Positions 179 to 55,074 of a stretch of DNA of 59,894 nt are shown here, one piece after another (positions within the stretch are counted from its first letter, which is position 1; each line of letters opens with the position of its first letter). Made by a program: the position numbers and the translations under genes. The DNA comes from a virus, in IMG/VR virus record IMGVR_UViG_3300045988_042358, positions 1-59,894 of that record, one strand, 5' to 3'. The notes under the pieces were generated by a model, which did not search any database, was not told the DNA's origin, and saw only the letters and a list, made by a program, of their open reading frames with translations.

Positions 179-1309
179 TTATATTACTTTGAGTGCTTCT
201 GCTACTCTGTCCATTTCTAAGTTCTTTTGCTCGTCTGTCGTGTGAACGTAAAGGTTCATTGTGATACCTATGTTCGAGTGTCCTAGTATCGTCTGCAAGG
301 TTTTGGGCGTCATACCGGCTTCAATACATCTTGTTGCGAATGTGTGTCTTAATACGTGCATTGAAAATCTCGGTATCTTTGCCTTGTCACACGCTTTGTA
401 AATTCCGGTATCATATGTGCTATTTTTCACAGGTGCCCCGGTCTTGCACAAAAACACTCTGTCTCTCCATTGAATGTCAATAAATTTGAATGAAGCATTT
501 TTAGCTTTCTGCAATTTCAATAGCGATACGGCTTCATCGGTGAGTGGAATTGTCCTATATCCCGATTTACTCTTAGGTGGTCCTTCTCGCCATTCGCCTG
601 TTGAATGTCTGTACTCTAAGCTCCTGACAATTTTAATTGTTTTGGCTTTAAAGTCTACATCTTCCCATTTAAGCCCTACAAGCTCGCCTGTCCTTAGTCC
701 GGTCTGCAAGGCAAATCTGTATTGATACTCATATGATGTACCTTTGATAGCTTCGCAGAATTTTTTCTGATTTTCAATCGTCAATGCTTCTTTCTTTGAG
801 GATTCCTTACCGATGTCGGATTTCACCATGCGGTTGCACGGATTTTTGGGGATAATCTCGCTTTGATATGCATAGTCAAGCATGTTGTATAGTGCTATGC
901 GTGTCTGATATATCGTTGCCGTTCTGTAATCCTCGTCAGCCATATTAGTCATTATCTTTTGGCAGTGAAGTGTATTAACCTCTCGCAGTATCTTATTTCC
1001 GATAACAGGCTTTATGTTGCGTTTGTATCTCTCGGTGTAATTCCTTAGCGTGTTCGGTCTTACTGTGCGCTTCTTAACGCTTATCCAATACTCAAACCAT
1101 GCATCAACCAACATGTCAGACGGAAAGTCGGGGTTGCTGTGCTCATCAGTGTACTGCTCATCGGCAAGCCACTTTTTACACTCTTGTAGTTTTGCAAATA
1201 ATTTCTGCACTCGCTTTCCATTCCTCGTTGTGTATCTGCCAACATAGTACTTGTCTTTTCTCTGACTAATGCCTCTGCCTAGTTCTTTGCCTTTCAAGTC
1301 CTTTCCCAT
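179..1309 (-). CDS. int: tyrosine site-specific integrase
   Basis: 376 aa. C-terminal catalytic region HVLRHTFATRCIEAG...LGHSNIGITMNLYVH (R..HxxR..Y pattern). AAGGAG RBS upstream. Confidence 0.95.
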   Translation of the reverse strand: MGKDLKGKELGRGISQRKDKYYVGRYTTRNGKRVQKLFAKLQECKKWLADEQYTDEHSNPDFPSDMLVDAWFEYWISVKKRTVRPNTLRNYTERYKRNIKPVIGNKILREVNTLHCQKIMTNMADEDYRTATIYQTRIALYNMLDYAYQSEIIPKNPCNRMVKSDIGKESSKKEALTIENQKKFCEAIKGTSYEYQYRFALQTGLRTGELVGLKWEDVDFKAKTIKIVRSLEYRHSTGEWREGPPKSKSGYRTIPLTDEAVSLLKLQKAKNASFKFIDIQWRDRVFLCKTGAPVKNSTYDTGIYKACDKAKIPRFSMHVLRHTFATRCIEAGMTPKTLQTILGHSNIGITMNLYVHTTDEQKNLEMDRVAEALKVI

Positions 1310-3452: not shown

Positions 3453-3852
3453 TTTCTAATAACTCCGGATTGTCAAAGACGTTTCCGACAACTTCATATT
3501 CAGTATCATATTCAAGTCTGTGCTTATAATATTTTTCGTTAGGAATTGTACATATAATTTCAAAATCTCTAAATGTTATGAGCACATTCCCCTTGCTATT
3601 ATTTATTTTTACAATATCATTCTCCCAAATCAGCTTGCCGTTCTTGTCTTTCAAGCCTGTACATTGACAGATTGTCTTTGAATTTACTTCGTGAATTTGA
3701 TTTCCATGTCGAGATTCGCATGTATCAGGACAATAATAATTTTCTGCGTATTTCTCAATAATTACATTTCTTTTCCCGATAACTCCATAATAACCAATAA
3801 CCCATTTTCCATTGTCAACTCTCTTTGCTTTAAATAAGTATCTATCTTCCAT
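3442..3852 (-). CDS. YopX family protein
   Basis: YLFKAKRVDNGKWVIGYY...IHEVNSKTICQCTGLKDKNGKLIWENDIV...VGNVFDNPELLE matches the YopX pattern. Confidence 0.8.
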   Translation of the reverse strand: MEDRYLFKAKRVDNGKWVIGYYGVIGKRNVIIEKYAENYYCPDTCESRHGNQIHEVNSKTICQCTGLKDKNGKLIWENDIVKINNSKGNVLITFRDFEIICTIPNEKYYKHRLEYDTEYEVVGNVFDNPELLESEG

Positions 3853-3863
3853 ATTCTCTCCTT

Positions 3864-4031
3864 TCAGCGTTTATTTTGATTATGGATATATTTTTTTCTT
3901 ACTCTTTCTTTTTCACGCTTCTCTTTTGCTTCCGGGAAAATAAAATCCATAGCATCATTCCAACCCTTTGTATAATCATCTTCATAATCTCTTGCCGTTG
4001 GTGCGCCCTTGTATAATGGCATTTTAACCAT
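3864..4031 (-). CDS. hypothetical protein
   Basis: Start at MVKMPLYK, preceded by AGGAGAG. The longer ORF to 4076 would overlap the upstream gene. Confidence 0.45.
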   Translation of the reverse strand: MVKMPLYKGAPTARDYEDDYTKGWNDAMDFIFPEAKEKREKERVRKKYIHNQNKR

Positions 4032-19475: not shown

Positions 19476-19801
19476 AAAAGCGCCATATTAGGCAAAATAC
19501 GCTAGGAGGTAAAAACCTTGAAAGCAATTTTGATTTTGCCTGTTCCATATTTGCGAGGTCGCATTTAAAATGTAGCAATCGGTGTAGCGCATTTTGGGCA
19601 GTAAAGCTCGATAAAAAATCATGGTTGGCATGTCCGATAATATGCCGTGCTACGCTAGATACTCCTCTCAATCCGCCAGCTAATGGCAACTAAAATGCTG
19701 AGCTTAAACTGCATAAGTGGCGGAACATTTAAAGAAGCATTGGTACTACACAGTGCGTCGAAAGACTGCAAAATGTATGTGGTGTAAAAAATAAGGCAAC
19801 G

Positions 19802-19837
19802 GCTGTTGGTGGTAGTACACTAACAGCTTTTGTTTTT
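19802..19837 (+). terminator. putative intrinsic terminator inside the switch region
   Basis: GCTGTT-14 nt loop-AACAGC, followed by TTTTGTTTTT. Confidence 0.5.
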
Positions 19838-21072: not shown

Positions 21073-21378
21073 TTAAAGCACCCCCTCATCCATTAACTGC
21101 CTTGTGTAGTTGTCTATTGCTTCCTCATCAGAGTGCTCGTTAATCTCTTTTGCCTGTTCCATAGCAATAAGATACTGTGAGTATTCATCCTGTGTCAGTT
21201 CACGTTCCTCGTACTCCCAATGCTTAGGCTTGTAAGTAAAATCATCCTCACTCCCTGTTGCTTCAACCGATTTAATGTTTTTTCGCTGATAAACGATATT
21301 CGGAGAAGATGTTGTGTCAATATCAAGCGGTTTGCCCGATTGCATACTTTCTACTAGCTTATATTCTGTCATATTCAA
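21073..21378 (-). CDS. hypothetical acidic protein downstream of the DGR RT (XkdW position)
   Basis: 101-aa ORF that overlaps the RT stop by 20 nt. Acidic, not Avd-like. Confidence 0.5.
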   Translation of the reverse strand: MNMTEYKLVESMQSGKPLDIDTTSSPNIVYQRKNIKSVEATGSEDDFTYKPKHWEYEERELTQDEYSQYLIAMEQAKEINEHSDEEAIDNYTRQLMDEGVL

Positions 21379-22468
21379 TACACCTTGCCTTTCTGTCTAC
21401 TGTTGAAATTTTGCGCTTTAGTTTTCCAAAATCTGCAAATGGTTTGATGTACTCCCTGTAATAATCGTACATATCGCAATTTTTAATCCACGCAAGAGCG
21501 GAAACCATTTGTTTTGAGTCAAATATTGTAACCTTTGTTTTCCGCCATATTCTAACTGCCTTAGCTCTTATTTTCTTAAGGATTGTTTTCCTTAAGGTGG
21601 TTCTATTCCTATAGAATTTATACCCCATAAAATCAAGCGGTCTACCATATGTTGCCGGCTTTTCATTCTTGCTAACATATGGATTTTGGGGCAAATAATG
21701 AAAACGAAATATCTGCCAGTTTGCTTTGACTGTCAAGCCCAATTCCGCAAGACTGTTATCAATCACGGCTTTTACCTTACGCAATTTCTTTTTGCTTGCA
21801 CAAAATATAGCCATATCGTCAACATAGCGTGCATATTTCAGCTCAATGCCGAGTGATTTGATTTCATGGTCAAACTCGCTCAAATACCAGTTTGCAAGCC
21901 ATACAGAGGTATAAAAGCCAAGTGGCAATCCATTAGGCACGCAATGTATAACATTTTCAACAATCTGCATGAATTTAAAATCTTTGATTTTAGATTTAAG
22001 CTTTTCGATTAATTTATCCTGTGGAATACTAGCGTAAAATTGCTTCACATCAAGCTTATAGCAATATTTAATATTTTTACCGCCTTGCCTTATCCATTTG
22101 CATATGTGCTTCTTGCCATACGCTCCGCCACGCTTAGGAACCGAGCCGTAACTGTGCTCATACATTCCTTTGTTAAACATGGGTTTAAGTACGTTCACTA
22201 TCATGTGATGTACTATTGACTCCATAACTGTCGGTATTACTATCTTGCGTTTCTTTCGTGATATTCCGTCATATATTTCTTTGGGCTTATGCTCAAAAGG
22301 TGTGAAGTTAATCGCATATTCTCTAATTTTGGGTATGTATGTATCAAGGTCTGCTAAAATTTTCCTAACCTTATTTCTTCTCTTTTTACCCTTAGAGAAG
22401 TTTTGAATTGCAAGTTTTATATTATCGTCTGAAATAAATTCAGCATATAGATTTCTGTATGTTATCAT
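21359..22468 (-). CDS. DGR reverse transcriptase
   Basis: Start at MITYRNLYAEFISDDNIKLAIQNFSKGKKRR (the ORF is open to 22507). Motifs: KRKIVIPTVMESIVHHM, LDVKQFYASI, GLPLGFYTSVWLANWYL, YARYVDDMAIF. Confidence 0.9.
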   Translation of the reverse strand: MITYRNLYAEFISDDNIKLAIQNFSKGKKRRNKVRKILADLDTYIPKIREYAINFTPFEHKPKEIYDGISRKKRKIVIPTVMESIVHHMIVNVLKPMFNKGMYEHSYGSVPKRGGAYGKKHICKWIRQGGKNIKYCYKLDVKQFYASIPQDKLIEKLKSKIKDFKFMQIVENVIHCVPNGLPLGFYTSVWLANWYLSEFDHEIKSLGIELKYARYVDDMAIFCASKKKLRKVKAVIDNSLAELGLTVKANWQIFRFHYLPQNPYVSKNEKPATYGRPLDFMGYKFYRNRTTLRKTILKKIRAKAVRIWRKTKVTIFDSKQMVSALAWIKNCDMYDYYREYIKPFADFGKLKRKISTVDRKARCIEYDRI

Positions 22469-22601
22469 ACGTATTCTCTTCCTATCCTCTCTACCACGTT
22501 CGACCATATCCTACTACTAGCAGTAGCTTGCATCGAGTTGATTTTTACCAAGGGGTACGGAATTTAGTCTGCATTCATTTTATCCCATGAATGATAGGTA
22601 C

Positions 22602-41800: not shown

Positions 41801-42235
41801 TTACATTTTCTTAAAAAATCTTTCAAACTCCATTCTTACGCTATCTGCTGTGGCTTTACCGCCAAGCGCATATGCCGTCTGTAACCATGATTTATTTTCC
41901 AAAAATCTAAAATTAATTATTCTTCTCATTCTGCTATCATCAAGGCTTGCTATAAATTCCTCTACATCGTTTGTCTTTTCAAGCAAATCATCTTGTAAAA
42001 GCTGTAATGTAGTCATTCTTGAGTACAATAACGTGCGCTTGCGTCCGTATTCAGGGTATGGCACGCCCTCGATTTTGAAGTGCTGTGTGCCACCCATGCC
42101 TCCTGACACAGTGTCAATCACGCTTTCTCCGCTTTCTATCTTTTCAAGGTCATCTCGCAATTTAGCAATTTTCTTTCTAACCTCTTTGATTTCCTCTTGT
42201 AAGTCTGAATACTGTGATAAAACTTCCTTTGTCAT
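41801..42235 (-). CDS. hypothetical coiled-coil protein with a C-terminal HTH-like region
   Basis: 144-aa ORF whose start abuts the TerL stop at 42235. RMRRIINFRFLENKSWLQTAYALG resembles a sigma-r4/ArpU-like HTH (weak). Confidence 0.45.
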   Translation of the reverse strand: MTKEVLSQYSDLQEEIKEVRKKIAKLRDDLEKIESGESVIDTVSGGMGGTQHFKIEGVPYPEYGRKRTLLYSRMTTLQLLQDDLLEKTNDVEEFIASLDDSRMRRIINFRFLENKSWLQTAYALGGKATADSVRMEFERFFKKM

Positions 42236-44004
42236 TAATAAAGCCCTCCTCTGAACGGATTGTGTACTGCTTCAACCTTTGCTATCCGCTTTTCCCTAAA
42301 AATCATATCGCACAACTGCGCTGTAGAATCCACACCATCATCATGTTTCATTTTTCCCTCATATGTGCAAGAAAGAACGTTTTGAAAATATTTCTTGTAT
42401 TCCTTAGTTTGTCTTTCAAGTTTTATGAAATGCAGTTTTCTTATATCCGGCGCATGATTTTTAATTCTGTCCATTTTTGCAGTTTTGTTATCTGCCGGGT
42501 CATGGCTTGTCAATATCGGGTAGCAATCTTTCTTCCATACTTTCTCGCACTCCAAACGATAGGCAGATGTTGTTTTTGTTTCCTCAAAATGTACCTCTGC
42601 TGTTTTATTTGGGAATTTATCTAAGTGGCTTTCCATCCTACTTGTTACTTCGGGAATTGTTATATCCTTATCGCCATCGTTATACACAACATCCACGATA
42701 TAGTATTCCTTTTCAATCTCATAGCAAATCGGCATTGATACAAAGTCTCCACCGCCATATGCCGGGTCGTTTGCTGAAAAAATTCTATCAGGTCTTATCC
42801 CCTCAATCTCTGCCGGGTCAAAAAAGTTCATGTTATCAATATTGAACATCTGACCTTTTCTTTCTATCGGCTCTTGCTGATATTGGGCGAACCATGAAGC
42901 CATATCGTCATTATCTTCAAATGAAGCCATTCTGCGCTTATAATCTAATGTGGAATATCCCAATTTGTAGGGATAATCAAAATTGCTCTCATTGTTTTCG
43001 TTGAGTGCCGGAATTATAACCTCTCTATGACGTATGTTTTTATATTCAGGATTATTTGCAAGCAATTCAAGCCTGCGCCCTTGTACATCTCTTGGTGCCC
43101 ATCTCGTGCCTATTCCTAACAGCTTTGCTTTGCCGGGCTTAATTCTCGGCATAAAGTTATTATCAAACTTTCCCCAAACTGTAGCCTGTCTGTCCTCGCT
43201 TAATGCTTCATCAATACCACTAAATAAATCGTCATATACTCCCAAGCCGTCACAGTCACACGCTCCGTTCAGTGTTCCGTATATAGAACGCATGGTAAAT
43301 GTCGGGTATGTTTTTTTACGCAAGAAGTCTATTGTAAGGTCTTTTCCGTCTGTAATAGCTTTTTTCTCTACAATTTTAGGGTAAATATCTTTGTAGGTGT
43401 ACGTTGGGTCATTTACCATTTCTAACGTACCATCGTAAAATCCTCCGGTTATTTTGTCAGAATATGCCGAATATAGATTTGACCTCTCGGGTCTGTTTGA
43501 GCCAAACCACAAATTACCCATTTTAACGATTTGAGTCTTTCCGATACGTCCGGGGCAAAACACCATGCCCTCATCAAGTTTGTCATCGTACAAATCTTGA
43601 ATGAGTTGTGCGACTTCGCTTAACGGATTTCTTCTCGGCAAATAAAATCTTTCCCATGGTGGACGATTTTTTTCCATGTAAATCATAAAGCTCTCAAACT
43701 TATAGTGAGCTTCTATCAGAAATAAATCAAAATAGTAATTAACTAAGTTATATGGTGTGGTCTCATGTTTGAAATGGTAATAATCCAATTCCCAAATCGT
43801 ACCACCTGTTTTTGCCATGCAAAAATCCTCTATAAGTTTTTTTACTCTCTTAGTAAGCTGTAGTCCATATTCAATGTCTTTCTCACCATTTACGGCTACG
43901 TTACAAGCGTTTACATAAGCATTGATGAACGGAATATCAATTTCATTTCTCTCTATGTAATTTTCATAACTATCAACTGTGGAAATAAGGCTCTGACTAG
44001 CCAT
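42235..44004 (-). CDS. terL: terminase large subunit
   Basis: Start at MASQSL after GGAGGTG. Walker A-like CPGRIGKTQ. Size and position upstream of the portal fit TerL. Confidence 0.8.
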   Translation of the reverse strand: MASQSLISTVDSYENYIERNEIDIPFINAYVNACNVAVNGEKDIEYGLQLTKRVKKLIEDFCMAKTGGTIWELDYYHFKHETTPYNLVNYYFDLFLIEAHYKFESFMIYMEKNRPPWERFYLPRRNPLSEVAQLIQDLYDDKLDEGMVFCPGRIGKTQIVKMGNLWFGSNRPERSNLYSAYSDKITGGFYDGTLEMVNDPTYTYKDIYPKIVEKKAITDGKDLTIDFLRKKTYPTFTMRSIYGTLNGACDCDGLGVYDDLFSGIDEALSEDRQATVWGKFDNNFMPRIKPGKAKLLGIGTRWAPRDVQGRRLELLANNPEYKNIRHREVIIPALNENNESNFDYPYKLGYSTLDYKRRMASFEDNDDMASWFAQYQQEPIERKGQMFNIDNMNFFDPAEIEGIRPDRIFSANDPAYGGGDFVSMPICYEIEKEYYIVDVVYNDGDKDITIPEVTSRMESHLDKFPNKTAEVHFEETKTTSAYRLECEKVWKKDCYPILTSHDPADNKTAKMDRIKNHAPDIRKLHFIKLERQTKEYKKYFQNVLSCTYEGKMKHDDGVDSTAQLCDMIFREKRIAKVEAVHNPFRGGLY

Positions 44005-44108
44005 AAGAAAAGCACCTCCACTTTTAAAAAGCAAAGGTGCTTATAGACCTCTGCCTATAACTGTTTTAGGGTAGCGACTACAATCAATCTGTAGCCGGTA
44101 ATGCATGT

Positions 44109-49072: not shown

Positions 49073-50125
49073 TTAATATTCAATAATGCCTTGCGCCAAC
49101 TGTAGCAGATAGTCACTTTTAGCAAAATGTGTTATCGAGTAATTAGTCTCTTTCCTATGTGTTCGTCTGAAATGCTCGTTAACCATTCTATCAAGCCCTG
49201 TAAGCCCTGTTTCGTCTGTTAGGTAAACATCTGTCCACTCAAAGTGATTATGTTCTGTATCGGTCACATTAGAAAGCGACAGGCATACATTAGTCAGAGT
49301 CTTATCGGTCAAGATTGGGTGAACCTTGCAAAAACCTGTCTCATACATACTCATGTATTTGCGAAATGTTCTTTTGACAGCTACCCTAATTGTCTTGTTC
49401 TCGATATTATCATCGCAGATTGCAAAAAACCTACAGACCATATCATCTTTCTTTGCTTGCATATCCTGTCGGGTGACTCTTGCCGTCTGTTCTTCGGGAA
49501 CAGATGTATGTACCTCTCCATCAATGTTAGTTGATGTATGTACCTTATCAGTAATCCCTGTTTCGTAATTATTGTTAAAGTAATCATTGTTAGTAATCCC
49601 TGTTAAAAGAGTTGCATCTTGTGGCATTCCCGAATTACACTTTGTGTTATTCCCTTGGGAATTACATTTTGTGTCATTCCCGTCTGCCTGTTTATGTAAC
49701 TCCTGTCCTTTATCTTCTGCTATAACCTCTTGTCTGATATTTTCTTCCCATTTTTTAACTTCTGCGTTGATAACATCATAATTAGGTCGTATATGTATAG
49801 TCGGCATTGAGTTAAATTTGTATTTTGCTGTAATTACAAATTTCTTTTTCACCAACGATTTAATTGCTTTATCATACTGTCTTTCAGTAATCCGTATTTC
49901 TTCCCACCAGTCTTTTCTTTGCTTTGCAATCCAATATTCGCCGTCCTTGTATATCTTAACTTTGCTCTTATTGTCTTTATTTGGCGCAAACCAATATAAA
50001 ATCCTTGATAAAAGTGTTCCCTCTATCAAGTCACCTGTTATGTCAATGTATTTATGGAATGTGTGATTGCACCTTGCTGATGATAAGAAATTAACTTTTG
50101 TTTGGATTTCGCTTTCTGATAGCAT
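49073..50125 (-). CDS. putative winged-helix DNA-binding/replication-initiator-like protein with internal DNA repeats
   Basis: Start at MLSESEI. GTLLSRILYWFAPNK...YWIAKQRKDWWEEIRITERQYDKAIKSLVKKKFV. Direct repeats lie within the gene. Confidence 0.35.
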   Translation of the reverse strand: MLSESEIQTKVNFLSSARCNHTFHKYIDITGDLIEGTLLSRILYWFAPNKDNKSKVKIYKDGEYWIAKQRKDWWEEIRITERQYDKAIKSLVKKKFVITAKYKFNSMPTIHIRPNYDVINAEVKKWEENIRQEVIAEDKGQELHKQADGNDTKCNSQGNNTKCNSGMPQDATLLTGITNNDYFNNNYETGITDKVHTSTNIDGEVHTSVPEEQTARVTRQDMQAKKDDMVCRFFAICDDNIENKTIRVAVKRTFRKYMSMYETGFCKVHPILTDKTLTNVCLSLSNVTDTEHNHFEWTDVYLTDETGLTGLDRMVNEHFRRTHRKETNYSITHFAKSDYLLQLAQGIIEY

Positions 50126-50429
50126 ATTTATTACCTGCCTTTCCGATAATAGCCTTATTAACAAAACAACAAACAGGCACTAAGGCTTGTGCTTTTCGGT
50201 AGCTAACCTAGTTTGTTGTAATTGATGTGGTGTGGATTTGAACCACACATGAAATTCCGTTAGTTAGTCTGCACCTACGAATAGGGAAAAATGGATTTTT
50301 ATTTTCTAACGGATTTATTGGTGTAATTGCTTACAGCTTTTTACCATACTTGTTAATAGCAATTCTTATCGCACACCGTTTTCTTAACCATTGATTAACG
50401 TTTACCCATTCCGTCACACATCAACAATC

Positions 50430-50499
50430 GGCAAGGTTGGGAATCGAACCCACGACAAATCAGCTAATAGCTGACTGCTCTACCACTGAGCTACATGCC
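50430..50499 (-). tRNA. tRNA-like element or degenerate tRNA (Asn-like body, AUU at the anticodon position)
   Basis: Canonical D arm GCUCAGUGGUAGAGC and T loop GGGUUCGAUUCCC. Against a functional tRNA: two mismatches in the acceptor stem, one in the T stem, and a palindromic anticodon arm. Confidence 0.4.
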
Positions 50500-50850
50500 A
50501 ATAATGAGGGTGAAGTCTAAGGAGTGGCAACACCCTCCGGAGATATAAATTTGTATGTGCTGTAGGAAGAAAAGAACTAACGAAACCTACAGCAAAGGAC
50601 ATGTGAGGGATTGCACCTCACCTAAGACTCATATGATTTGAGTTGCCCTAGTTTAACAATTAAAGGGGGTATATATGTCTACACTGCCTGTTACAGATGT
50701 CTTTACGACAGGTTGGTTTTCACGCTCGTGCATTGTGGGATTAGACACGATTAAACCCTCACGAGCCTTGTGACGGCTCTTAACAGCTTTCCACTATGAG
50801 GTCGAAAGGAACTACTAAGTCCAATGTCGGGGAACCAAGTAAACCCCGAA
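50500..50850 (-). ncRNA. ORF-free, highly structured spacer between the two tRNA-type elements (candidate large ncRNA)
   Basis: Multiple 6-8-bp helices: UCGGGG/CCCCGA, CUCGUG/CACGAG, GUGAGG/CCUCAC, CUGUAGG/CCUACAG, GAGGGUG/CACCCUC. No minus-strand ORF with an RBS. Confidence 0.4.
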
Positions 50851-50922
50851 CAGGGCATGCTGGATTTGAACCAACGAATGCGGGAATCAAAATCCCGTGC
50901 CTTACCGCTTGGCGAATGCCCT
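50851..50922 (-). tRNA. tRNA-Gln (anticodon UUG)
   Basis: A 72-nt cloverleaf folded by hand: acceptor AGGGCAU/AUGCCCU, D arm GCCAAGCGGUAAGGC, anticodon arm CGGGA-UUUUGAU-UCCCG, T arm GUUGG-UUCAAAU-CCAGC, discriminator G. Confidence 0.9.
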
Positions 50923-50924
50923 AT

Positions 50925-51083
50925 TTATTGCCACATAAAAGCTATGGCAAGTATCTGACTGAGCATTACCGCAATGCCAAGAAATCTTGTACTGACTGTC
51001 ACTTTTTCGTTTAATGTGGCATTTACCATTCCAAAAGCAATTAATGCCAGCCATACTGTTGTTGCAATTTTTAATACAAACAT
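50925..51083 (-). CDS. hypothetical small two-helix membrane protein (52 aa, below the ORF-track cutoff)
   Basis: ATG 51083 follows GAGGTG. MFVLKIATTVWLALIAFGMV...FLGIAVMLSQILAIAFMWQ. The stop lies 3 nt before tRNA-Gln. Confidence 0.45.
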   Translation of the reverse strand: MFVLKIATTVWLALIAFGMVNATLNEKVTVSTRFLGIAVMLSQILAIAFMWQ

Positions 51084-51100
51084 GATTTACACCTCAAAAT

Positions 51101-51550
51101 CTAATTATCCTTAAAGCCCTCTATCAGCGACTCGGTTATGGTAGCCAAGACTAGAAACACTACCGAGATAAGCAATCCGTGTTCGTCAGATAAGAGTACC
51201 GCACGAATTGTGCAAAGCATCATCAGCCACAGGAAAACATTTTTAATCAACACTGGAAGTTCCTTGTCCACGAATTTTCCAAACACTTTCCATCTGCGCC
51301 TAGATTTAAGCTCGTGAGCCTTAACTGTGTACCATATAGCTTTGTGCATATCCTCAACTGCAGGTCCTTTATGCCCGGCACGATACTTATACTTGTATGC
51401 AGTAATCTCACACCATTTAGCCACATCTTTAAGTCCGTAGATGTCAATCATCTCATCAATGCACTCTTTACGATTAGGCAAATTATAGTGGCTAGGGTGA
51501 TTTACCATTTCGGAATTAATTTTGCTAGACTCAAATCCTGTTAATTTCAT
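51101..51550 (-). CDS. DUF3310-family phage protein with a C-terminal membrane segment
   Basis: VNHPSHYN...ECIDEMIDIYG...ITAYKYKYRAGHKG..EDMHKAIWY, then hydrophobic helices. Confidence 0.65.
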   Translation of the reverse strand: MKLTGFESSKINSEMVNHPSHYNLPNRKECIDEMIDIYGLKDVAKWCEITAYKYKYRAGHKGPAVEDMHKAIWYTVKAHELKSRRRWKVFGKFVDKELPVLIKNVFLWLMMLCTIRAVLLSDEHGLLISVVFLVLATITESLIEGFKDN

Positions 51551-54573: not shown

Positions 54574-54939
54574 ATGAAAAAAATACAGTTATCAGACGAA
54601 AGTAAAAGCGTTTTGCACATTTTAACAAGGGAAGAATGGGAAAGAATACCGAACGATTACAAAACAAATTATATCATTGATTACACCAAAAAGGAAATAA
54701 TAGACAAAACAATCAAAAGTGCTTTCTTGCCTGGATATGGCACAACATTATTTTTTGAAAATAGACATTTTCTTATAGTTGACGACACGAAACCATTGAA
54801 AAAGTATGCTATATGGAGGAATCACGAGGTAATAGGATATTGCGAAATCGACAAGGCTACAGCGGACAAGGCAAACAGAGCAAGCAATGCATATTTTTAT
54901 TTTGGTTTTGACAAAGTAATAAGCCCAGAAAAATATTAA
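54574..54939 (+). CDS. hypothetical protein (moron island)
   Basis: Start at MKKIQLSDE after AAAGGTGG. Confidence 0.5.
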   Translation: MKKIQLSDESKSVLHILTREEWERIPNDYKTNYIIDYTKKEIIDKTIKSAFLPGYGTTLFFENRHFLIVDDTKPLKKYAIWRNHEVIGYCEIDKATADKANRASNAYFYFGFDKVISPEKY

Positions 54940-54945
54940 TTCTTT

Positions 54946-54996
54946 CCGTCATCCGTTTAGACGGTCGGCAGGGTTCAACGCCCTGCGGCGGTTTTT
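54946..54996 (+). terminator. tRNA acceptor/T-arm-like minihelix followed by a U-run (terminator mimic 2)
   Basis: CCGTC...GCAGGG-TTCAACG-CCCTGC-GGCGG-TTTTT. The outer stem closes with one G.U pair. Confidence 0.5.
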
Positions 54997-55015
54997 CCTG
55001 TAAAGGATATTACAA

Positions 55016-55074
55016 GCTAATAGCAATACAAATTAACAAGGGTATTTTAGCCGGTTCAATTCCGGCTATTAGCT
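55016..55074 (+). ncRNA. D-arm-less tRNA-like element
   Basis: Acceptor GCTAATA/TATTAGC (7 bp), T arm GCCGG-TTCAATT-CCGGC, and a central AATAC/GTATT hairpin. Only 27 nt between the acceptor and the T arm. Confidence 0.4.

Follow-up and report, generated by a model that had tools for sequence, protein, structure and literature searches.

Exchangeable RNA modules between a tRNA-Gln and a replication-initiator-like gene in a temperate gut phage

Layout of the block

IMG/VR virus record IMGVR_UViG_3300045988_042358, a stretch of 59,894 nucleotides (nt) hereafter called the window, is the genome of a temperate gut phage. Between an open reading frame (ORF) of 52 amino acids (aa) and a replication-initiator-like gene (rep) lies a block, 50165..50924, that an earlier inspection of the letters (the sequence-only reading) had singled out as ORF-free, densely structured and a candidate for one large ornate RNA of the GOLLD or ROOL kind. 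Covariance models, transfer RNA (tRNA) calls and related phages divide it into five modules. All coordinates are those of the window, and all features of the block lie on the minus strand:

52-aa ORF, ending at 50925, minus strand: the block's upstream neighbour
tRNA-Gln(UUG), 50850..50923, minus strand: called by ARAGORN; Rfam tRNA model, 59.6 bits
X RNA, 50501..50849, minus strand: a 349-nt structured spacer of sequence type A, backed by 137 distinct homologous spacers and by its fold z-score
Second tRNA, anticodon AUU, 50428..50500, minus strand: called by ARAGORN; Rfam tRNA model, 43.2 bits
tRNA-Leu-like framed RNA, 50222..50423, minus strand: 201 nt plus a discriminator A; 163 copies in relatives
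int-alpA motif (RF02996), 50153..50218, minus strand: Rfam, 53.8 bits
rep, ATG at 50125, minus strand: phrog_428, E = 1.2e-7

The modules are separated by gaps of 1–5 nt, the tRNA-Gln starts 1 nt past the stop codon of the 52-aa ORF, and G+C content is 0.40–0.47 within the block versus 0.31–0.39 in its flanks. The claim that no credible ORF is present was borne out: the sole minus-strand ORF of at least 40 aa in 50165..50924 has 40 aa (50602..50480) and overlaps a tRNA. The canonical tRNA-Gln(UUG) was likewise confirmed by ARAGORN at 50923..50850. An element at 50430..50499, which had been called degenerate and tRNA-like, lies within two bases of that position but is a tRNA by both ARAGORN and Rfam, though an irregular one; coordinates in the sequence-only reading were throughout correct to within two bases. 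It did not mention the int-alpA match at 50218..50153, which the Rfam search shows.

All 4227 families of Rfam 15 were scanned, at gathering thresholds over the whole window and at E ≤ 10 with permissive filters over 49800..51300. The block matched the two tRNAs and int-alpA only; the remaining matches in 49800..51300 were at chance level, with E ≥ 0.3 and scores far under the gathering scores.

The modules are conserved and exchanged separately

A scan with the rep protein yielded 171 related viral contigs, 80 of which were used, and two DNA-pattern scans yielded at least 120 contigs each, giving about 300 related phage contigs overall, nearly all of ~55–60 kb. BLAST of the block against these relatives returned stretches of 92–100% identity interrupted by replaced, inserted or missing segments. 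ARAGORN found a variable tRNA array upstream of rep in which tRNA-Gln(UUG) always comes first; the members after it are Asn(GUU), a tRNA with A34 (AUU/AAU/AGU), Ser(GCU), Ser(UGA), Tyr, Cys and a final tRNA frame. Swapped between relatives are tRNA-Asn, Ser, Tyr, Leu and Cys, suppressor tRNAs, the inserts of the framed RNA (its cargos) and the types of spacer. Each module is separately conserved and exchanged among related phages. Outside this group, blastn of the block against INPHARED (50,697 phage records) gave tRNA matches only, and none was obtained for X type C or for the framed RNA plus int-alpA.

That modules are gained, lost and swapped independently in relatives is our main argument that the block is not a single folded RNA. 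We consider it highly probable that it is a minus-strand cassette of separate RNA genes, five modules in a modular architecture. Three of them belong to known families (the two tRNAs and int-alpA), and the X RNA and the framed RNA are conserved, covarying and apparently undescribed. The earlier interpretation holds insofar as the block is non-coding and carries dense, conserved RNA structure among phage tRNA genes, and fails in making it one large ornate RNA. Nor does the region resolve into ordinary tRNA genes plus unstructured spacers, an outcome that had also been envisaged, since the 349-nt spacer and the 201-nt element are both conserved and covarying.

The X RNA has a conserved, covarying core

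X-type spacers follow 187 of the 200 tRNA-Gln(UUG) calls in relatives. These 187 arrays hold 137 distinct spacers, each starting at the 3' end of tRNA-Gln and ending at the next tRNA. The window's spacer (50849..50501) had been described as structured, and its folding indeed beats that of shuffled sequences (z = -2.63; 1 of 100 shuffles equally good). At least three sequence types occur that can barely be aligned with one another: type A, that of the window (344–354 nt), type B (355–448 nt) and type C (204–258 nt). The plan of X comprises, in its 5' part, a P1 hairpin, a pyrimidine strand, the 5' strand of P2, a junction ending in GUUAAR and a P3 hairpin. The 3' part comprises a G, the 3' strand of P2, a variable P4, the sequence GUGAAAAYCAAC (types A and C only) and a type-specific 3' domain with a C-rich loop. 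The elements of X in the window are:

P0 hairpin GGGG..CCCC, 50829..50847, minus strand: directly after tRNA-Gln; present in types A and B, missing from type C
P1 hairpin GGACU/AGUUC, 50809..50822, minus strand: short in the window's type, register uncertain
Pyrimidine linker, 50804..50811, minus strand: UUCCUUUC in type A, CCUCCUUUC in types B and C
Core, 50757..50801, minus strand: P2, formed by CCUCA 50801..50797 and UGAGG 50761..50757, around the GUUAAG junction and P3
P3 hairpin GAGCC..GGCUC, 50779..50763, minus strand
Variable P4 hairpin, 50752..50725, minus strand, then the conserved GUGAAAACCAAC, 50723..50712
Type-specific 3' domain, 50506..50672, minus strand: from RNAalifold on 71 type A sequences
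C-rich segment AUACCCCCUUU, 50672..50662, minus strand, in the 3' domain
Three 3'-domain hairpins, 50643..50627, 50621..50603 and 50593..50559, minus strand
Hairpin GGAGGGUG...CACCCUC, 50538..50506, minus strand, in the 3' domain

P1 is constant in position and type-specific in sequence (GGACUUA/UAAGUCC, GAACUUA/UAAGUUC, GACUACC/GGUAGUC, CUGUUC/GAACAG and GUCUAUCUU/AAGAUGGAC). P2 occurs as CCUCA/UGAGG, CUUUC/GAAAG, CCUCU/AGAGG and CUCUC/GAGAG, and P3 in five versions: GAGCC/GGCUC, GGACU/AGUCC, GAGUGGU/ACCACUC, AAGCGGU/ACCGCUU and GGGUAGU/ACUAUCC. The bases TCCTTTC are invariant in 40 of 40 distinct X core sequences, and a motif GUGRAAWYCAAC is common to types A and C. One pair of the type A P4 is seen as U:A, C:G and U:G, a fully compensatory series. 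A pairing of UUUCAY with GUGAAA may close a three-way junction; it shows wobble changes only, and type B is without the motif. Variation in the predicted stems of the type A 3' domain is mostly from G:C to G:U or from A:U to G:U.

MAFFT alignment across the three types misplaced P2 and P3, and it was replaced by a hand-made structural alignment padded with N and by a model-fitted alignment. In the hand alignment, the P2 5' strand was located by complementarity within a short interval, where it always lies directly before UAG or UUGG. P2 and P3 form standard pairs in 98.9% of 442 cells, versus 79.5% in shuffles (0/500 as good), and 9 of the 12 pairs have changed on both sides; with the partner strand slid by 1–3 columns, only 39–50% of cells are paired.

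As an independent check, we used a covariance model trained only on type C. Type B copies are recovered by it at E from 6e-4. In a 4-kb part of the window, searched with filters off, its top match (E = 0.027) is the minus-strand segment 50846..50702, with P2 and the outer pairs of P3 aligned as in the hand alignment. The resulting model-fitted alignment has 14 rows, leans on structure and contains one row that is probably spurious; both sides have changed in 14 of the 19 P1–P3 pairs (5 of 7 in P1), and 95.9% of cells are paired versus 77.3% in shuffles. One of its rows is a match at 54890..55042 on the plus strand (E = 0.24 in 261 kb), which lies over a plus-strand ORF and which we take as chance. 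We also considered by eye a hairpin or pseudoknot of CCUUUC with GGAAAG, GAGAG or GGAG and rejected it: type B variants break the pairing, and its register differs by type.

No match to X was found in Rfam 15 at E ≤ 10, by blastn in INPHARED or in the literature searched, and the other X sequence types in relatives likewise match no Rfam family. Scanning 185,579 species-representative genomes for X gave six matches, one of them plausible: L201 (CAVKBM010000278.1, 3231 nt). It was binned with a Bacteroidaceae metagenome-assembled genome, and binning of so short a contig is unreliable and here conflicts with the Firmicutes-like lysin and ribosome-binding sites of the phage. L201 was not recovered by the type C model at default filters, a search that also missed the window's type A. 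The other five (from a cyanobacterium, a member of the Desulfobacterales and others) look like chance matches, and none was confirmed by the model.

Two further observations concern X in particular relatives. Recombination can fall within it: L117 has a hybrid X whose 5' half comes from one type C subtype and whose 3' half comes from a second. L078 and L079, the relatives furthest from the window (rep 52% identical), have after tRNA-Gln a 404-nt stretch that is without the X core and apparently contains a small ORF served by a separate ribosome-binding site; int-alpA still precedes rep.

A possible role for X

The pyrimidine strand CCUCCUUUC of types B and C corresponds to what we take to be the 3' end of 16S rRNA, and is in that sense anti-Shine-Dalgarno-like. 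Its predicted probability of being unpaired is 0.85 in type B, 0.62 in type C and 0.47 in type A. A C-rich loop is present in all X types, with a predicted unpaired probability of 0.94–1.0 in types B and C (whole-RNA mean 0.41–0.47). The exposed strand and the CCCC loop together suggested a trans-acting RNA, or a mimic of the 16S 3' end offered to a protein. We propose tentatively, from these predicted folds, that X might be a trans-acting RNA whose targets are purine-rich, Shine-Dalgarno-like sequences or a protein recognising such sequences.

A rather unlikely alternative is that X acts in cis only, on the tRNA precursor or on the expression of rep, by providing a platform for processing, by attenuation or by stabilisation. 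In its favour, X never occurs apart from tRNA-Gln and has no promoter or strong terminator of its own, and in type A the UGAGGG segment can pair either with CCUCA or with the 3' CACCCUCA. The core, however, is kept while the downstream tRNA varies (Asn, Ser, Tyr, suppressor), the 3' domain is wholly different between types, and the alternative pairing is not seen by eye in types B and C.

A tRNA-like frame carries interchangeable cargos

Downstream of the second tRNA, a third T arm had been noticed together with a distant complementary flank. Both are present: GUGUGG-UUCAAAU-CCACAC lies at 50248..50230, and CACAUCA at 50229..50223 pairs with UGAUGUG at 50423..50417. They belong to the element that we call the framed RNA, found in 163 copies among ~296 loci. 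In the window it consists of:

Acceptor 5' strand UGAUGUG, 50423..50417, minus strand
D arm, 50415..50397, minus strand
Cargo of 147 nt, 50251..50396, minus strand, replacing the anticodon and variable arms
T arm, 50248..50230, minus strand
Acceptor 3' strand CACAUCA, 50229..50223, minus strand, with A73 at 50222

The frame is near-invariant, with UGAUGUG-U-GGCGGAAUGGGUAAACGCU on the 5' side (a half retrieved by a near-exact pattern) and, on the 3' side, U followed by GUGUGG-UUCAAAU-CCACAC-CACAUCA-A. Its stems occur in compensatory versions: GUGUGG/CCACAC or GCGAGG/CCUCGC in the T stem (the latter in 37 copies, a few of which have an extra single-base change), and GGCG/CGCU or GACG/CGUU, the window's, in the D stem. 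The acceptor stem varies from U:A to U:G. In unconstrained minimum-free-energy folds every variant forms the acceptor stem CACAUCA/UGAUGUG, the T arm and a structured cargo, and most form the D arm.

The cargos occupy the place of the anticodon arm and variable region. They fall into 8 unrelated families of 60–147 nt, and relatives that are 92–100% identical to the window elsewhere carry different ones. The window's cargo has two hairpin domains inside a closing stem GA(A/G)A/U(U/C)UC, which shows a compensatory change. To the second domain belongs the 8-bp helix UCCGUUAG (50313..50306)/CUAACGGA (50263..50256) that the sequence-only reading had picked out, and this helix is kept in 14 of 14 distinct aligned relatives of that type. 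Three of the 56 predicted pairs in this cargo family show compensatory changes (RNAalifold, 14 distinct sequences), and in a 128-nt family two subtypes keep their hairpins through several such changes. The cargo (50278..50255) and an X hairpin (50585..50562) are complementary over 11 bp, which by a rough count is no more than chance would give.

The D-arm region of the frame is identical to Escherichia coli tRNA-Leu(CAG) at 17 of 20 positions without gaps, versus 10–13 of 20 for other tRNAs; the reference was confirmed as an annotated tRNA-Leu in 5426 genomes. The discriminator A follows CACAUCA in 18 of 18 frame variants, and the U before the T stem is invariant. Together with U8, A14, A15 and G18G19, the Leu-like D arm, A73 and this U point to descent of the frame from a type II, Leu-like tRNA with its tertiary core intact. 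Bacterial leucyl-tRNA synthetase (LeuRS) does not read the anticodon, and leucylation of the framed RNA is for this reason conceivable.

The framed RNA has no match in Rfam 15 (at E ≤ 10 no tRNA, intron, transfer-messenger RNA (tmRNA) or YrlA match) or in INPHARED, ARAGORN calls no tRNA gene at the 201-nt element even in intron mode, and literature searches on tRNA-framed phage RNAs found none. In some relatives (L006 at 3682..3906, and similarly L001, L013, L020 and L021) an extra ORF-poor segment of ~225 nt (AUCAUACGUCGGUUUAGUGCGAGCUGUUAUAUCUUGAAUAGCGGUUGCGUAA...) lies between the framed RNA and int-alpA; others have different fillers there, which could be more RNA modules.

The int-alpA motif and the tRNAs

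The match at 50218..50153 is a member of RF02996 by score (53.8 bits versus a gathering score of 35.8) and by structure: CAACAAAC/GUUUGUUG closes a three-way junction, and a U-tract comes next. A gap of 4 nt separates the motif from the framed RNA, and ~35 nt lie between the end of its U-tract and the ATG of rep. All 15 relatives scanned have it above the gathering score (38–59 bits), including the distant L078, and in every one it comes after the final tRNA or tRNA-like module, close in front of the rep start codon. Two compensatory versions exist, with closing stem CAACAAAC/GUUUGUUG or CAGUUG/CAACUG and second hairpin GCAC/GUGC or GCGG/CCGC; both keep CUAG, CGAAAAGC, CCUG and the U-tract. 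A simple terminator scan misses the motif because its stem is A/U-rich. It could be a small RNA ending by termination, or could control, as a terminator or attenuator, how much transcription reads through into rep. In L014 it consists of joined halves of the two versions with the closing stem broken; an assembly chimera is also possible there.

Both tRNAs score above the Rfam tRNA gathering score (RF00005, 29 bits), at 50923..50850 (59.6 bits, UUG) and 50500..50428 (43.2 bits, AUU). The second is irregular in that one of its acceptor pairs is non-standard and its T stem has one extra base; its body is conserved. ARAGORN reads this body in relatives with anticodon AUU in 75 copies, AAU in 13 and AGU in 1, always with A34, a base unusual in bacteria outside tRNA-Arg(ACG).

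A further tRNA, missing from the window, stands last before int-alpA in L019, L040, L042 and others (locus coordinates ~3835–3906). Its constant frame GGAUAGUAGUUCAGUUGGGAGUAAC...GUCACAGGUUCAAGUCCUGUCUAUCC carries anticodon-arm variants for an ochre suppressor (UUA, 54 copies), an opal suppressor (UCA) or Gln (UUG), and in an enlarged form of 81–83 nt it is read by ARAGORN as Leu(caa), Leu(taa), Pro(cgg) or unknown gcgg. This makes a second instance in which the anticodon domain varies and the tRNA body stays constant.

Alternative explanations of the block

Several points weigh against the cassette of separate RNA genes. That the modules are co-transcribed, where they would be processed and whether X and the framed RNA are stable are matters of inference. 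For the X core the alignment was a manual one in which complementarity decided the place of the P2 5' strand, all X homologues come from one phage clade, and the covariation rests on few sequence types. The single-sequence fold of type A pairs UGAGGG with the 3' end instead of forming P2, and the anti-Shine-Dalgarno-like motif of type A is degenerate (UUCCUUUC), its exposure of 0.47 being no higher than average. The invariance of the frame's 5' half is partly a product of the near-exact pattern used to retrieve it. The framed RNA is absent from many relatives, L019 among them, and is hence not essential, and a 154-nt cargo has a second T-arm-like hairpin (a tRNA-like fragment of 24 bits) that could be recombination debris.

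Some of these points would fit X and the frame being functionless, decaying remnants of spacers and of a broken tRNA-Leu gene in a fast-changing array. The array is a recombination hot spot, one cargo holds the tRNA-like fragment, the second tRNA is irregular and many relatives lack the frame. We regard this as quite improbable: P1–P3 of X, the T and D stems of the frame and the cargos' own helices are all kept through compensatory changes, the tertiary-core bases and A73 are invariant across 8 unrelated cargos, and X is present in 187 of 187 arrays examined despite three very different sequences.

That the whole ~760-nt block is one large ornate RNA like GOLLD or ROOL, enclosing tRNA-like modules, is very improbable. 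Such a reading draws on the lack of ORFs, the raised G+C, the many helices with some long-range complementarity in single-sequence folds, and the occurrence of GOLLD and ROOL beside tRNAs in prophages. The covariance-model scans found no GOLLD and no ROOL, neither over the whole window at gathering thresholds nor over 49800..51300 at E ≤ 10, and no other large RNA at E ≤ 10. ROOL is one RNA of ~580 nt, and the biggest single conserved module here has 349 nt. Relatives insert, delete and swap whole modules between the same flanks, with lengths differing by hundreds of bases, and every conserved pairing is local to its module. From established tRNA biology, moreover, RNase P and RNase Z would be expected to cut the tRNA-shaped modules out of such a molecule.

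It is still harder to credit that the block acts as DNA, a replication origin or attachment site beside rep whose helices are incidental. It does lie directly upstream of the replication-initiator-like gene, and tRNA 3' halves are classic phage attachment sites; but no iteron-like repeat family was found in the block, pairing is kept through G:U pairs, which are possible on one strand only, the integrase gene (179..1309) sits at the far end of the window, and the tRNA-like element has kept its two halves, one on either side of a short insert. Equally hard to credit is that the 201-nt element is an intron-interrupted gene spliced to a working tRNA-Leu: its acceptor, D and T arms are intact and tRNA-Leu-like, and bacterial and phage tRNA genes can have group I introns in the anticodon loop, but the conserved flanks end after the D stem and restart just before the T stem with no anticodon stem-loop outside the insert, the inserts show no evident 7-nt anticodon loop and, at 60–147 nt, are shorter than any self-splicing intron known to us, ARAGORN's intron mode is negative, and no group I or group II intron matches at E ≤ 10.

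The phage genome and its host

The window is the genome of a temperate tailed phage, with integrase, RecT, portal, capsid, terminase and lysin genes; a Bro-N/ORF6C protein, a Peptidase_S74 tail fibre, a GH25 lysin, Capsid E and an SPP1-type portal are among its products. Features away from the block are:

Tyrosine integrase, 179..1309: at the opposite end of the window from the block
FuFi-1 RNA match, 19672..19832, plus strand: 122.3 bits versus a gathering score of 59.6
RVT_1 reverse transcriptase of 382 aa, 21359..22507, minus strand: beside the RT-18 RNA match
RT-18 RNA match, 22478..22557, minus strand: 42.4 bits versus a gathering score of 41.3; at the 5' end of the RVT_1 gene
Large terminase, 42235..44034

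By its terminase, the nearest described phage is Clostridium innocuum phage Maintenon, at 35% identity. The genes of the window have strong Shine-Dalgarno sites, and the host is probably a Shine-Dalgarno-using member of the Firmicutes. The RVT_1 gene and RT-18 match adjoin tail-fibre-like genes and may form a diversity-generating retroelement. FuFi-1 is a motif of unknown function from Fusobacteria and Firmicutes (PMC5737381). In one relative (L027, 29..97, minus strand) a type II hammerhead ribozyme match of 61 bits, versus a gathering score of 37, lies ~3 kb upstream of the tRNA cassette.

How the cassette could work and why it matters

A promoter scan inside the cassette gave nothing above chance and, as no convincing internal promoter was found, the cassette would be transcribed as one precursor. 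Host tRNA-processing enzymes would then release the three tRNA-shaped modules, with RNase P cutting on the 5' side of each and RNase Z or exonucleases working on the 3' side. X would owe both its ends to these cuts, and the int-alpA RNA its 5' end. The int-alpA junction and U-tract would end most transcripts, and read-through would give the rep mRNA.

The tRNA body of the framed RNA (acceptor, D and T arms, U8, A14, G18G19, the U before the T stem and A73) would be a handle for processing and stability, and perhaps also for the CCA-adding enzyme, LeuRS or EF-Tu. It would present an interchangeable structured domain, as a natural counterpart of the engineered 'tRNA scaffold'. The many unrelated cargos found on one invariant frame suggest that selection favours diversity in the cargo and that the cargo does the work. 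Its function could, as a tentative proposal drawn from this pattern, be that of a decoy or binder in phage–host conflict. A fuller version of the idea is possible, though on balance doubtful: a CCA-added, possibly leucylated and EF-Tu-bound frame that protects decoy or inhibitor cargos, for example against tRNA-targeting defences, beside X as a new class of RNA resembling the 16S 3' end, the two forming a modular 'RNA cassette' of temperate gut phages.

If X and the framed RNA are real, an abundant family of ~55–60-kb gut phages carries a swappable non-coding RNA cassette beside its replication gene. The framed RNA stands a moderate chance of being a new natural strategy; it would be the first natural 'tRNA scaffold' design known to us, and an arms-race tool would be expected to show just such a pattern, with eight unrelated cargos on one frame. 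X would extend the short list of phage RNAs of unknown function with one that is tRNA-flanked, structured and endowed with a motif like the 16S 3' end. More generally, ORF-free, tRNA-adjacent phage blocks should be split into modules by comparison before they are labelled as giant RNAs.

Comparison with known systems

The int-alpA motif here shares with its family the three-way junction, the conserved CUAG, CGAAAAGC and CCUG bases and the U-tract. The family's name derives from its setting near integrase or alpA genes, whereas here the motif lies between a tRNA array and a replication-initiator gene, and the only integrase found is at 179..1309, no search having been aimed at alpA. X resembles, in mechanism only, the C-rich regulatory small RNAs of Firmicutes of the RsaE/RoxS type, whose exposed C/U-rich motifs are able to pair with G-rich Shine-Dalgarno regions. 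X differs in being much larger, in its conserved multi-helix core, in being released (if at all) by tRNA processing and in having no known targets.

The framed RNA recalls tmRNA in that its ends form an acceptor stem stacked on a T arm, a large structured insert takes the place of the anticodon arm, and charging without an anticodon would be conceivable. ARAGORN, however, calls no tmRNA anywhere in the window; where tmRNA has G:U as its third acceptor pair the framed RNA has A:U, and it also has a full D arm, no evident tag reading frame or pseudoknot ring, and a length of 113–201 nt. Like YrlA and other tRNA mimics, it is a non-coding RNA organised around elements that resemble the acceptor, T arm and D arm of a tRNA. 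YrlA also occurs in phages; its termini lie in the Ro-binding stem and its acceptor-like stem is closed. The framed RNA matches no such Rfam family at E ≤ 10 and has the reverse topology, its termini forming the acceptor stem.

GOLLD and ROOL are large RNAs in Rfam (Weinberg et al. 2017, PMC5737381) with cryo-EM structures (PMC12286853). The cassette is like them in its phage or prophage setting, its adjacency to tRNA genes and its structured non-coding RNA of unknown function; it differs in that X has 204–448 nt versus ~600–800 nt and the block is made of several independent modules. As in described phage tRNA arrays with suppressor tRNAs (10.1101/2021.08.26.457843), the cassette of relatives includes UUA and UCA suppressors, whereas the window has none.

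The closest parallel to the proposed design is the engineered 'tRNA scaffold' of Ponchon and Dardel (PMC3753655), an approach for recombinant RNA expression in E. coli. In both, a tRNA body has its anticodon arm swapped for an arbitrary structured RNA; the scaffold thereby borrows cellular tRNA processing and stability, as the framed RNA would. The scaffold is a laboratory construct, whereas the framed RNA, known here from sequence, would be a natural evolving family with at least eight cargos.

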